Virus record (IMG/VR): IMGVR_UViG_3300000115_000005
Origin: a virus
Direction: 5' to 3' (one strand)
Length of the DNA: 64,000 nucleotides
Translations under genes and position numbers: made by a program
In this document: positions 34,714 to 54,734 of the stretch, piece after piece
Numbering within the stretch: position 1 is the stretch's first letter
Layout of the letters: each line of letters begins with the position of its first letter
Notes under the pieces: model-generated
What the model was told of the DNA's origin: nothing
What the model saw: only the letters and a program-made list of their open reading frames with translations
The model's database searches: none

Positions 34714-35010
34714 TTATCTTCTCATATTTGCCTGATCTTTTGCTTCTTCATCCGTAAAAATAGGCACAGCGTTGCTTTTATGCAACGTACCAATGCCTTT
34801 CATATTACTACCAGTATAAACTTGATTGTCTTTTTTAACAGCCACACCTGCACCAGAATTGAGAGATGGATGTCTGTAAGTCTGCCTAGGAGGGCAGATT
34901 GATGTATCAATAGGAGATTTACGAGCTATTAATTTGACTTTTTTAGTCTTGTTTTTTAATAACATCTTTCTAGTCTTTTTAGACCATCTTTGACCTGTGT
35001 GAAACATCAT
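34714..35010 (-). CDS. conserved phage protein (YTG..KGIGTLHKSNAVP family)
   Basis: Motif recognised; start placed at ATG with GAGGA RBS rather than 35061. Confidence 0.7.
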   Translation of the reverse strand: MMFHTGQRWSKKTRKMLLKNKTKKVKLIARKSPIDTSICPPRQTYRHPSLNSGAGVAVKKDNQVYTGSNMKGIGTLHKSNAVPIFTDEEAKDQANMRR

Positions 35011-35034
35011 AATATATTTAATCCTCAATAAAAA

Positions 35035-35290
35035 ATAAAATGTTTGTTGGAGGCTCACCAAGACTAAGAATCGTCATTCAACTTGTATTACTACTCCAAC
35101 AAACAAAAAAAAGTTTCGTAGTTAGGTATTGTCTTGGCCTCTTAAGAAGGAGATTTTTCGTCCTCCGCCGACAACTTTTTATCTCAAACAGTTGTTACTA
35201 CTATGTTTCTACCTAACTACCATTTCGATTTATCTGACTTGATATGCTTGATTTAAGACTTACAATCTTTTAGAACTATCTCAACTGTTA
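35035..35290 (-). ncRNA. candidate structured non-coding RNA / leader
   Basis: Downstream of strong promoter; 11-bp (35118-28/35210-20) and 12-bp (35041-52/35094-105) perfect inverted repeats, each followed by a U-tract. Confidence 0.55.
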
Positions 35291-35295
35291 AAACC

Positions 35296-35324
35296 ATTTT
35301 ATAGGCATATTGATGAAATGTCAA
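35296..35324 (-). promoter_or_regulatory. sigma70-type promoter
   Basis: TTGACA-17-TAAAAT. Confidence 0.8.
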
Positions 35325-35353
35325 CAGCTAATTTATGTTGTATTTTTGCAACA

Positions 35354-35533
35354 TTACCCTTGCAATAAACCTCTATGGTCAGTCTGTTCAAAAATTTGTC
35401 TACCTTTATCATCAAATTTTAATTTTAATAAATCCGATATTTCATTTTGTAACTCACTTACACCAGCTCTTGATGTAGAGATTTGACTATAAAGTTCATT
35501 TATTCTTTGATCGACCTCGGCTTTAGTTTTCAT
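35354..35533 (-). CDS. hypothetical 59-aa coiled-coil protein
   Basis: Hand translation MKTKAEVDQRINELYSQ...LLQG; AGGAGG upstream. Confidence 0.6.
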   Translation of the reverse strand: MKTKAEVDQRINELYSQISTSRAGVSELQNEISDLLKLKFDDKGRQIFEQTDHRGLLQG

Positions 35534-35663
35534 ACCTTACTTCCTCCTTAAAATTTTTGTATGTTGATTTATCATGATGTTTCATTTTCTCATGTTTTAC
35601 AACTTCAGATTTTTGTGTAAGTTTTGTTCTTTTGGTTTTTAATATTTTTTGTTGACTAATCAT
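35523..35663 (-). CDS. hypothetical 46-aa basic protein
   Basis: ATGA overlap with clpP stop; fills gap. Confidence 0.45.
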   Translation of the reverse strand: MISQQKILKTKRTKLTQKSEVVKHEKMKHHDKSTYKNFKEEVRYEN

Positions 35664-36220
35664 TTGTGCCTTCCTAAAATGTGATCTATAACTTTATTCT
35701 CAAATGCTTGTTGAGGTGACATATAAAAGTCACTAGGTAATAAAAATTTTTTATTAATTAATGTTTTATCCACACCAGCATTTTCTAGTATATTATATGT
35801 TCGATCTTTAATACTTTCGTTTTCTTTCACCCAAGATTTTATGTCATGATATTTTGCATTGATTTCATTTGAAAATTCATGACACATTAAAGTTGTTAAA
35901 GGACAAGAGTATCTATGGCCTTTGGTACCTGATATAAGAATATAAAAAGCAGCTGAACAAGCTGAACTAACTGCTATGGTCTTTACGTTATGTGGTGATG
36001 TATACATCATATCAATAATACCAAAAGCGTCAATCAAACTACCACCATCTGAGCTAATGTATATCGACAATTCTTTTTTTATTTTTTTATCTGTATTGTG
36101 GTAAATTAACCAGCGTATTAATTCATTTGCTGAATCTGAAGTTATTTCTCCGTTTAGAAAATATATATTTCTTTCTAATAACGTCTTTTCAATGTCATCA
36201 TTATCTTTATCTTTTGACAT
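35660..36220 (-). CDS. clpP: ClpP-like protease subunit
   Basis: RNIYFLNGEI, IYISSDGG, ACSAA (Ser), LMCH (His), DFYMSPQQA..VIDHI. Confidence 0.85.
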   Translation of the reverse strand: MSKDKDNDDIEKTLLERNIYFLNGEITSDSANELIRWLIYHNTDKKIKKELSIYISSDGGSLIDAFGIIDMMYTSPHNVKTIAVSSACSAAFYILISGTKGHRYSCPLTTLMCHEFSNEINAKYHDIKSWVKENESIKDRTYNILENAGVDKTLINKKFLLPSDFYMSPQQAFENKVIDHILGRHK

Positions 36221-53834: not shown

Positions 53835-54362
53835 AGTGAGAGTTTTATTTAAAAAGTCCACTACTCTCAAAGGACTCGCACATTTGGTTTTTTAAAGAAA
53901 CCGACCACGCACCGTGGGAAAACTTCTTGTTATTAGAGTTTATTCTTTCTGAAGAAAAACCCTGCCATGATAGGCTAAAAACGACAATAGGCTTGAGTTG
54001 TTACTACTGTTCTGCATTTGCGTTTTACAGAAGCTCTTTGTATCAAGGTATCTCGGATATCGCACATTACCTCTGACCCTTAAAATTAGATTCGTCTATA
54101 AGGGGATTTGAACCCCCATCTTCAAAGCGATCAACTTTGACGTTTTAATAGCTAAAGAACCACTATTCTAGGAAGTATTACTACTTCATCATTAAACTAT
54201 ATACAACGTTTTTTTACACCGAGTTTTCCCTATCATGTTTCGGATAGATGCTTGATGCTGAATCTAATACAATCATAACAACTCAAATTCTTAAAATCTT
54301 TATAAATTAAGACTGATGCACCAGTTCTATTCTCTTACGAGGTAGACGTTTTCTTAATCTAT
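53835..54362 (-). ncRNA. large structured non-coding RNA with embedded tRNA-like domain
   Basis: No ORF of 60 aa or more; upstream promoter; nested and crossing 8-11 bp perfect inverted repeats; tRNA-like arms at 54093-54208; 3' H-type pseudoknot. Confidence 0.7.
54093..54208 (-). other. tRNA-like element (GAT in anticodon-type loop) with ~40-nt D-loop expansion
   Basis: TA-GTTT-AAT...AAAC D stem, TCAAAG-TTGATCG-CTTTGA arm, GGGGG-TTCAAAT-CCCCT T arm, bulged acceptor, no CCA. Confidence 0.65.
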
Positions 54363-54368
54363 GAGTCC

Positions 54369-54397
54369 ATTCTATATGAGTATGTATAAAATGTCAA
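54369..54397 (-). promoter_or_regulatory. sigma70-type promoter for large ncRNA
   Basis: TTGACA-17-TAGAAT. Confidence 0.8.
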
Positions 54398-54734
54398 CAG
54401 CTAATTTCAATTACTTCTAGTACCTGTTGTTGTTGTAAAAGTACTACAAGTACCACGAAAACCATGAAGTACCATCATAACATAGAGTGGCCTAAGTGTG
54501 AGGTAAAGTCCCAAAGATACTACGAAAAAAGGTACCGAGTGATTTTTCCACCGGAAAAAAATTAAGTGGTGCTTTAGTGGAGGGAATCAATTTTCGACCA
54601 GAGTAAAACAAAATCTAAGGATCACTAGGGGGTCTGTCGTGCTGGGGTGGGTAACTCTGCCAACTGTATATGGGGGGCTGCAGCGACCATGTAGCTTGCC
54701 TACCGACCGAAAAAAGACTCTTCGGCCGAAGTAT

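Follow-up and report, generated by a model that had tools for sequence, protein, structure and literature searches.

A 343-nt non-coding gap (35011-35353) in the window, which is the whole 64-kb stretch of viral DNA that was analysed, appears to hold on its minus strand the gene for a discrete, structured and uncatalogued RNA of ~175-185 nt, located behind an early promoter. We put the probability of this reading at roughly 0.55, a figure that covers the whole of our best explanation, namely the RNA gene, its fold, and its proposed release and action in trans; the 5′ and 3′ ends, the stability and the processing of the RNA are predicted. An earlier note, made from the letters of the DNA alone, had described a promoter-driven, non-coding structured RNA locus here, and all of the features that it listed were found where it had placed them, on the minus strand. 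About 279 nt of the gap are predicted to be transcribed.

Promoter, conserved unit and genomic contexts

The window comes from a T4-like myophage in which the minus strand carries nearly all genes. For its baseplate tail-tube-cap-like protein, only distant relatives (~31% identity) were found, in cyanomyophages and in the Pelagibacter phages HTVC008M and Mosig. The gap is bordered upstream by a conserved 59-aa ORF (35354-35533) and downstream by a 98-aa gene of unknown function (phrog_27048; 34714-35010, minus strand), the ribosome binding site of which, GAGGA, is at 35026-35022. Farther upstream of the 59-aa ORF are genes for a ClpP-like protease and sugar-nucleotide enzymes. The ClpP-family gene (35660-36220, minus strand; Pfam PF00574, E 2e-29) is found in the early region, adjoining sugar-nucleotide epimerase genes; as it lies away from the structural module, it may not encode the prohead protease. 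No conserved ORF was found in the RNA unit itself, and a small ORF reading AUG GUA GUU AGG UAG was rejected, as its sole AUG reads ACG in the long types of the RNA.

Reading along the minus strand, the stop codon of the 59-aa ORF is followed directly by an inverted repeat that can form a stem-loop (AUGUUG/CAACAU with an 8-nt loop; 35335-35354), and this is followed directly by an early sigma-70-type promoter (35296-35334). The promoter comprises an upstream flank (35334-35325) shared with a second locus near 54 kb, a −35 hexamer TTGACA (35324-35319), a 17-nt spacer and a −10 hexamer TAAAAT (35301-35296); it agrees with the consensus at 11/12 positions and is the top-scoring site across 2.5 kb. 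The stem-loop is kept in the related loci L002, L005, L009, L010 and L047. Transcription is predicted to start at the A at 35289, 7 nt past the −10 hexamer, which is also the first base of AACAGUUG (35289-35282), the 5′ strand of the helix that we call P0.

Promoter-early stem-loop (PeSL) cassettes have been described in T4-type phages (PMC2839356, PMC4122927), and the arrangement seen here is alike in that a small stem-loop stands directly before an early promoter and recurs in the window and in relatives at the edges of swapped modules. The likeness concerns the promoter part only: a PeSL accounts for the upstream 60 nt and the shared 19-mer described next, but not for the conserved RNA downstream. 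The claim that this promoter subtype is common to the 35-kb and 54-kb loci was borne out, with a 19-mer flank present exactly at 35316-35334 and 54389-54407 and a stem-loop preceding each copy. The 19-mer occurs nowhere else in the window at ≤3 mismatches, and only two copies of the subtype were found in the 64 kb. At the second copy, a 12-nt inverted repeat (92% complementary, 17-nt loop; 54412-54452) ends 5 nt upstream of the 19-mer. In another contig (L042, 7080-7250) the same 19-mer promoter drives a protein gene that follows two apparent tRNA genes, as read by eye, which indicates that the 19-mer is a promoter module rather than a signature of the RNA.

Relatives were sought with the downstream protein in viral contigs, with an invariant 26-mer of domain 1 of the RNA in viral and metagenome contigs, and with a covariance model on whole records. 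These searches found 34 loci that contain the core, in marine viral and metagenome contigs, corresponding to ~20 distinct versions and five structural types: a short type, a long type with an extra hairpin of ~50 nt, and the types of L010, L047 and L068. The usual order of elements is the stem-loop and promoter, the leader and domain 1, a U-rich spacer, a variable domain 2, tRNA-Met(CAU) and the 98-aa gene. At least four genomic contexts can be distinguished. The RNA unit is found behind the 59-aa ORF in the window type, and behind unrelated sequence, accompanied by a divergent homing-endonuclease-like gene, in L061, L067 and L052; a leader-less 116-nt form occurs in L010 and L047; and L068, on the 144-kb contig G001, is a stand-alone RNA that has its own promoter and directly adjoins, downstream, the end of a convergent gene. 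The gene that usually lies downstream is present in G001 with no RNA ahead of it, and among the relatives' contexts we found no conserved neighbouring gene for the RNA. A blastn search with the locus against 50,697 phage records gave no match, nor did the domain 1 covariance model (R1) match HTVC008M, Mosig or any of seven other large or partial IMG/VR records besides G001. Across 185,579 genomes of bacteria and archaea the core pattern had 0 matches, which gives no hint that the RNA derives from a host. A looser core pattern applied to viral contigs added only L075-L080, which were discarded as G+C-rich chance matches in coding sequence.

Comparison of these loci with the window, segment by segment, outlines the conserved unit. 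Both promoter hexamers are retained in every context, while the spacers between them drop to 43-63% and the flanks to 38-60% identity in the L005 type, L052, L061, L067 and L010. Conservation sets in at the predicted start (AACAG), the position expected for sigma-70, and it does so in every context. From there on, the leader is 94-100% and domain 1 89-100% identical to the window in the L005 type, L052, L061 and L067, with lower values for domain 1 of L010 (74-83%). Identity falls again past a U-run, with domain 2 at 44% in L061 and L067. The jump at the predicted start and the drop past the U-run together delimit a conserved unit of ~175-185 nt, from 35289 to ~35105-35113 on the minus strand. 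Promoters, neighbours and even the tRNA have thus been exchanged around an RNA that keeps its sequence, which speaks for the RNA itself being functional.

Near-identity across contexts could partly result from recent horizontal exchange rather than from selection alone, a caveat raised by the homing endonuclease gene that adjoins the RNA in L061. This divergent 182-aa gene (L061:5428-5976, plus strand) lies just upstream of the RNA promoter, has weak matches to homing endonucleases (phrog_314, E 2e-6), and may explain both the movement of the cassette and the uniformity of its sequence. The tRNA cluster of T4 likewise contains a homing endonuclease, segB.

Fold of the RNA and its variable 3′ region

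The fold model that we propose consists of four helices, P0, P1, P3 and P4, and is supported by sequence comparison of the five structural types. In all types the first eight bases (35289-35282) can pair with CAACUGUU (35194-35187) to form P0, which is 100% paired in the alignment and stays fully paired through five substitutions, i.e. one double change and four wobble changes: L068 has G-C in place of one A-U pair as well as two wobble changes, and L010 has two U-A pairs changed to U.G. Since P0 crosses P1, the RNA is predicted to be a pseudoknot that locks its 5′ end in place. P0 has a competitor in a local hairpin, ACAACU/AGUUGU, with which the sequence data are compatible too. Between P0 and P1 lies the leader (35281-35222), a variable insertion that L010 and L047 lack and in place of which L068 has a different hairpin.

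P1 is the 11-bp stem of the earlier note, formed by GUAGUUAGGUA (35220-35210) and UACCUAACUAC (35128-35118), with 99% of cells paired and three compensatory pairs, changed on both sides, in relatives. Its 5′ strand is followed by a linker, GAAACAUAGUAGUAA (35209-35195), which contains the first AGUAGUAA and at which the long variants add their hairpin of ~50 nt; two pairs of this inserted hairpin are changed on both sides. After the 3′ strand of P0 comes an A-rich single strand, UGAGAUAAAAAG (35186-35175), that is near-invariant in relatives. P3 (35174-35129), 99% paired, joins UUGUC-GGC (35174-35167) to GCC-AA-GACAA (35138-35129) and encloses P4, the hairpin GAGGA-C-GA[AAAA]UC-UCCUU (35165-35147), in which one pair reads C-G in the three sequences L010, L047 and L068 and A-U in the other nine. 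The 3′ limit of the conserved unit is a tail (35117-35105) of GAAAC and U8 (35112-35105), and this is likely the region of 3′ end formation. L068 is without the U-run after P1. Alternative hairpins P2 (AGUAGU/ACUGUU) and P5 (CUUC/GAGG) were set aside, being in our own reading weaker than, or incompatible with, L068 and the covariation of P4. A likeness of GUAACAA and CUCCUU to the 3′ end of 16S rRNA was judged coincidental.

In the 12-sequence alignment, 98.5% of cells are paired, compared with 31-51% when the partners are slid by 1-3 columns, a control that is biased in favour of the structure because the sequences counted are also those used to derive it. The covariation that the earlier note had called for in homologous loci was found: seven pairs (ten cells) are changed on both sides, a value reached in 0/500 shuffles, in an alignment of low diversity to which three sequences, L010, L047 and L068, contribute the majority of the compensatory changes. 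The G.U pairs are compatible with the minus strand only, and variable hairpins are inserted at two sites, between P0 and P1 and after the 5′ strand of P1, without touching the core. Fold z-scores are −3.2 for domain 1, −4.2 for domain 2 and only −1.5 for the whole 278 nt.

These data bear on the idea that conservation acts at the level of DNA, with the locus serving as a cassette for recombination, as the target or co-converted tract of a homing endonuclease, or as a replication origin primed by the promoter transcript, and that there is no RNA gene here at all. The module does move between contexts behind a PeSL-like stem-loop and promoter (PMC2839356, PMC4122927), and the homing endonuclease gene of L061 stands next to it. 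However, compensatory and strand-specific G.U changes maintain the four helices, conservation begins at the transcription start and not at the promoter, and the hairpin-sized insertions leave the core intact. We therefore regard DNA-level conservation as highly improbable.

Past the conserved unit lies domain 2 (35105-35041), a variable accessory hairpin closed by a 12-bp stem (35105-35094 with 35052-35041). Like P1, this stem of the earlier note is real; in the L005 type one of its pairs has switched from G-C to A-U. Within domain 2 is a mini-hairpin, GUA-GUAA-UAC, which is an 11-mer at 35095-35085. The length and presence of the domain differ widely: L001, L002 and L005 have a long form, the window copy is 28 nt shorter, and in L056 the base of the domain is doubled; L061 and L067 have in its place unrelated sequence closed by a similar kind of stem, and L007, L009, L010, L047 and L068 have no domain 2 at all. 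The long domain 2 of L002 (2790-2880) can be drawn as a rough cloverleaf, with a 7-bp acceptor-like end of the closing stem followed by UA and a 4-bp GUAA/UUAC stem, and with an arm UUGRGC/GCUCAR that carries two wobble-compatible changes in the L005 type; it matches no tRNA model and no T-arm was found in it. The word ACAGUUGAG from the 5′ end of the main RNA recurs in this long domain 2.

A U-tract, UUUUAUUUUUU (35040-35030), follows domain 2. Of the U-tracts that had been described after both stems, both are present; that of the 12-bp stem is directly adjacent to it, and that of the 11-bp stem is separated from P1 by the 5 nt GAAAC. A scan of the locus for intrinsic terminators found none on the minus strand, with a loop limit of 3-8 nt that would exclude both domains. 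The UUUUAUUUUUU tract is probably terminator-like and leaky, as in relatives it is followed by tRNA-Met and transcription must pass it. tRNA-Met(CAU) lies between the position of domain 2 and the 98-aa gene in L002, L005, L009, L010, L047, L061 and L067. The window, L063 and L065 have lost both this tRNA and the original start of the gene but retain the RNA. The deletion (window 35011-35040 compared with L002:2880-3000) swapped the ribosome binding site and first codons of the 98-aa gene, which read ATGATGTTT instead of ATGGGTTAC. In L061 (4922-5041, minus strand), and in the same stretch of L067, tRNA-Met is followed by ~90 nt of non-coding sequence, closed by UCGGAG/CUCCGA and containing GUAGUUGAGG, with a fold z-score of only −1.1.

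We envisage that the RNA would be transcribed early, at the head of a polycistronic transcript that usually continues into domain 2, tRNA-Met and the small gene. It could then be freed as a stable species by an RNase P cut at the tRNA, by an endonuclease cut in the U-rich spacer, or by both. The main rival to an RNA acting in trans is a cis-acting 5′ module, in which P0 buries the 5′ triphosphate and protects or marks the downstream RNA against 5′-end-dependent decay, or in which the U-runs attenuate read-through. The RNA is always at the extreme 5′ end of its transcript, with that end paired, the downstream cargo differs between phages, and in the window type there are U-runs after both P1 and domain 2, all of which would suit such a module. 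Yet near-invariant unpaired segments would be superfluous in a simple stabiliser, and in L068 no gene or tRNA follows on the same strand. The U-run is 5 nt off P1 and missing in L068, and no conserved alternative pairing of the terminator/antiterminator kind was seen. We consider a cis-acting module possible, although on balance unlikely.

Relation to the 54-kb locus

The earlier note had proposed that this RNA and one encoded at 53.8-54.4 kb are co-regulated through a common protein-binding or RNA-RNA interaction motif, and that the loops of the two domains of the 35-kb RNA are complementary (CCAAGAC/GTCTTGG). The 7-nt complementarity exists, and ~2 such 7-mers would be expected by chance per 260 nt by our own estimate. 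The pairing itself does not hold up: CCAAGAC (35137-35131) is part of the 3′ strand of P3 and not a loop, it is kept in L007, L009, L010, L047 and L068, all of which have no domain 2, and in L001 and L002 an A.C mismatch results from the partner sequence, GCCUUGG.

Three shared words, a 13-mer, an 11-mer and a 9-mer, are present in both loci at the positions noted before. Measured against 2000 dinucleotide shuffles of the 54-kb locus, the 13-mer stands out (p ~0.006) and the 11-mer is marginal (p ~0.09), while the 9-mer, ATCAAGCAT, is at chance level (p ~0.7) and was dropped as a shared motif. The 13-mer drifts within the RNA family, reading GUUAGUAACAACU in the long types, AGCAGUAACGGCU in L010 and L047 and GAGUAGCAACU in L068. 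The motif AGTAGTAA has 8 copies in the window against 3.2 expected, half of them (4/8) inside the two RNA loci. In the predicted folds of both RNAs the 13-mer is the 3′ strand of a long-range helix, and the 11-mer can fold into a hairpin with a GUAA tetraloop. From the enrichment of AGUAGUAA and the same roles of the 13-mer and 11-mer in the two RNAs, a shared building habit, or a common ancestry of pieces, is possible.

The cassette at 54 kb (53835-54362) is similar to the 35-kb locus in having the same promoter flank and stem-loop, in being non-coding, on the same strand and AGUAGUAA-enriched, and in being uncatalogued and exchangeable between phages. It differs in being built round a tRNA look-alike with a weak Rfam tRNA match, whereas the 35-kb RNA contains no domain of that kind. 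A search of viral contigs for an exact 24-mer from the T-arm of this tRNA look-alike gave 0 matches. When R1 was run on the whole window with filters off, it found only the 35-kb locus and nothing in the 54-kb locus, so the latter is not a paralogue. The contig G001 (~80% complete) has an RNA of the 35-kb type and no match to the 54-kb cassette.

Of the common motif proposed for the two RNAs, then, the enrichment of AGUAGUAA in both stands, whereas the shared words vary within the family, no model match links the loci and their co-occurrence is not constant. A working partnership of the two RNAs through a AGUAGUAA-type motif, serving as a protein site or as an RNA-RNA contact, could draw on the promoter cassette common to both loci, on the AGTAGTAA enrichment together with the 13-mer, and on the helix strand and tetraloop hairpin that recur in both RNAs. 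It is set against the variation of these words inside the RNA family, the failure of the domain 1 model at 54 kb, the state of G001, the kissing pair that is not conserved, and the use of the promoter word for a protein gene. Several of these points argue against an obligate partnership, and we think a co-regulated set improbable.

Comparison with known RNAs and possible roles

With Rfam 15 at the gathering threshold, the window gave only tRNA matches, located elsewhere than the RNA locus. Thus the comparison with Rfam by Infernal, one of the checks suggested for this locus, assigned it to no family. At E ≤10, the region 34900-35450 gave only far-sub-threshold noise from snoRNA and sRNA models and no ribozyme or riboswitch family, and at E ≤0.5 four relatives gave nothing but their tRNA-Met. 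No tRNA or Y-RNA model of the YrlA kind matched the locus, and there is no T-loop of the GUUCRAAUC type in the conserved unit.

The closest known parallels in kind are the small stable RNAs of T4, RNAC (species 1, 139 nt) and RNAD (species 2, 119 nt), the roles of which are still unknown (PMC3014915, PMC9697503); the small stable RNAs of T4-type tRNA regions have gone fifty years without an assigned role (PMC3014915). Like these, the marine RNA is a non-coding structured RNA of 100-200 nt inside a tRNA transcription unit of a T4-type phage, a location that it has in the relatives that retain tRNA-Met. We see no sign of homology, as R1 scored ≤11.9 bits on T4 69000-76000, which is noise, with no match on rnaC or rnaD. 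RNAC also ends in a tRNA-like T-arm, which the marine RNA lacks, and RNAC and RNAD come after a tRNA and are reported to be late, in contrast to the promoter-proximal position and early-type promoter of the marine RNA. An 11-mer, AUGGUUGAGAU, is found both in the 5′ end of the L068 RNA (L068:1698-1708, minus strand) and in T4 rnaC (L071:1909-2047, minus strand), in different structural contexts; its sharing may be a coincidence, with a chance of ~0.01-0.05 by our own rough estimate. The RNA is a new, uncatalogued family of a known general kind, the small structured RNAs in phage tRNA transcription units.

HDV-like ribozymes have a nested double pseudoknot, a G.U pair at the cleavage site, a P1.1 helix and a catalytic C in J4/2. 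The compact pseudoknotted fold and invariant joining strands of the phage RNA could suggest a catalytic or ligand-binding RNA with a nested-pseudoknot core, either a self-cleaving ribozyme or an aptamer, and its strand order (P0a, P1a, P0b, stem-loop, P1b) is that of HDV. An HDV-like ribozyme was nevertheless rejected, with only the strand order being similar. The first pair is A-U or G-C and not the G.U of HDV-like ribozymes, no J4/2 and thus no joining strand with a candidate catalytic C is left if P3 forms, and Rfam gave no match. The conserved RNA begins at the promoter's own start, so 5′ cleavage is not needed. A ribozyme or aptamer thus seems very unlikely.

We favour instead an RNA that is probably stable, trans-acting and protein-binding. 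The invariant single strands and the fold would bind a protein or other macromolecule of host or phage, and pairing to domain 2 or to the 54-kb RNA would not be how the RNA works. No complementary (antisense) target for the invariant strands was found elsewhere in the 64-kb window. A bolder reading, distinctly unlikely in our view, is that the RNA is the first of a new class of compact pseudoknotted phage RNAs with the 5′ triphosphate locked in the fold, that it has an active role of its own, and that it spreads as a mobile cassette among abundant marine T4-like phages. If this were true, such a 5′-locked RNA might act on a host defence protein or RNA-end-sensing nuclease, as its decoy or inhibitor, or might be an exonuclease-resistant, cap-like structure or a ribozyme.

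The phages that carry the RNA are uncultured marine T4-like viruses, and their nearest isolates infect SAR11. To the small stable RNAs of T4-type phages it would add an unrelated and better-delimited example, with a clear promoter, a sharp 5′ boundary and a pseudoknot that can be tested. Its natural minimal (116-nt) and expanded (~230-nt) versions define the core of the RNA, and the minimal version offers a compact construct for probing, pull-downs and structural work. The RNA would also merit a new RNA family entry for use in annotating marine viromes.
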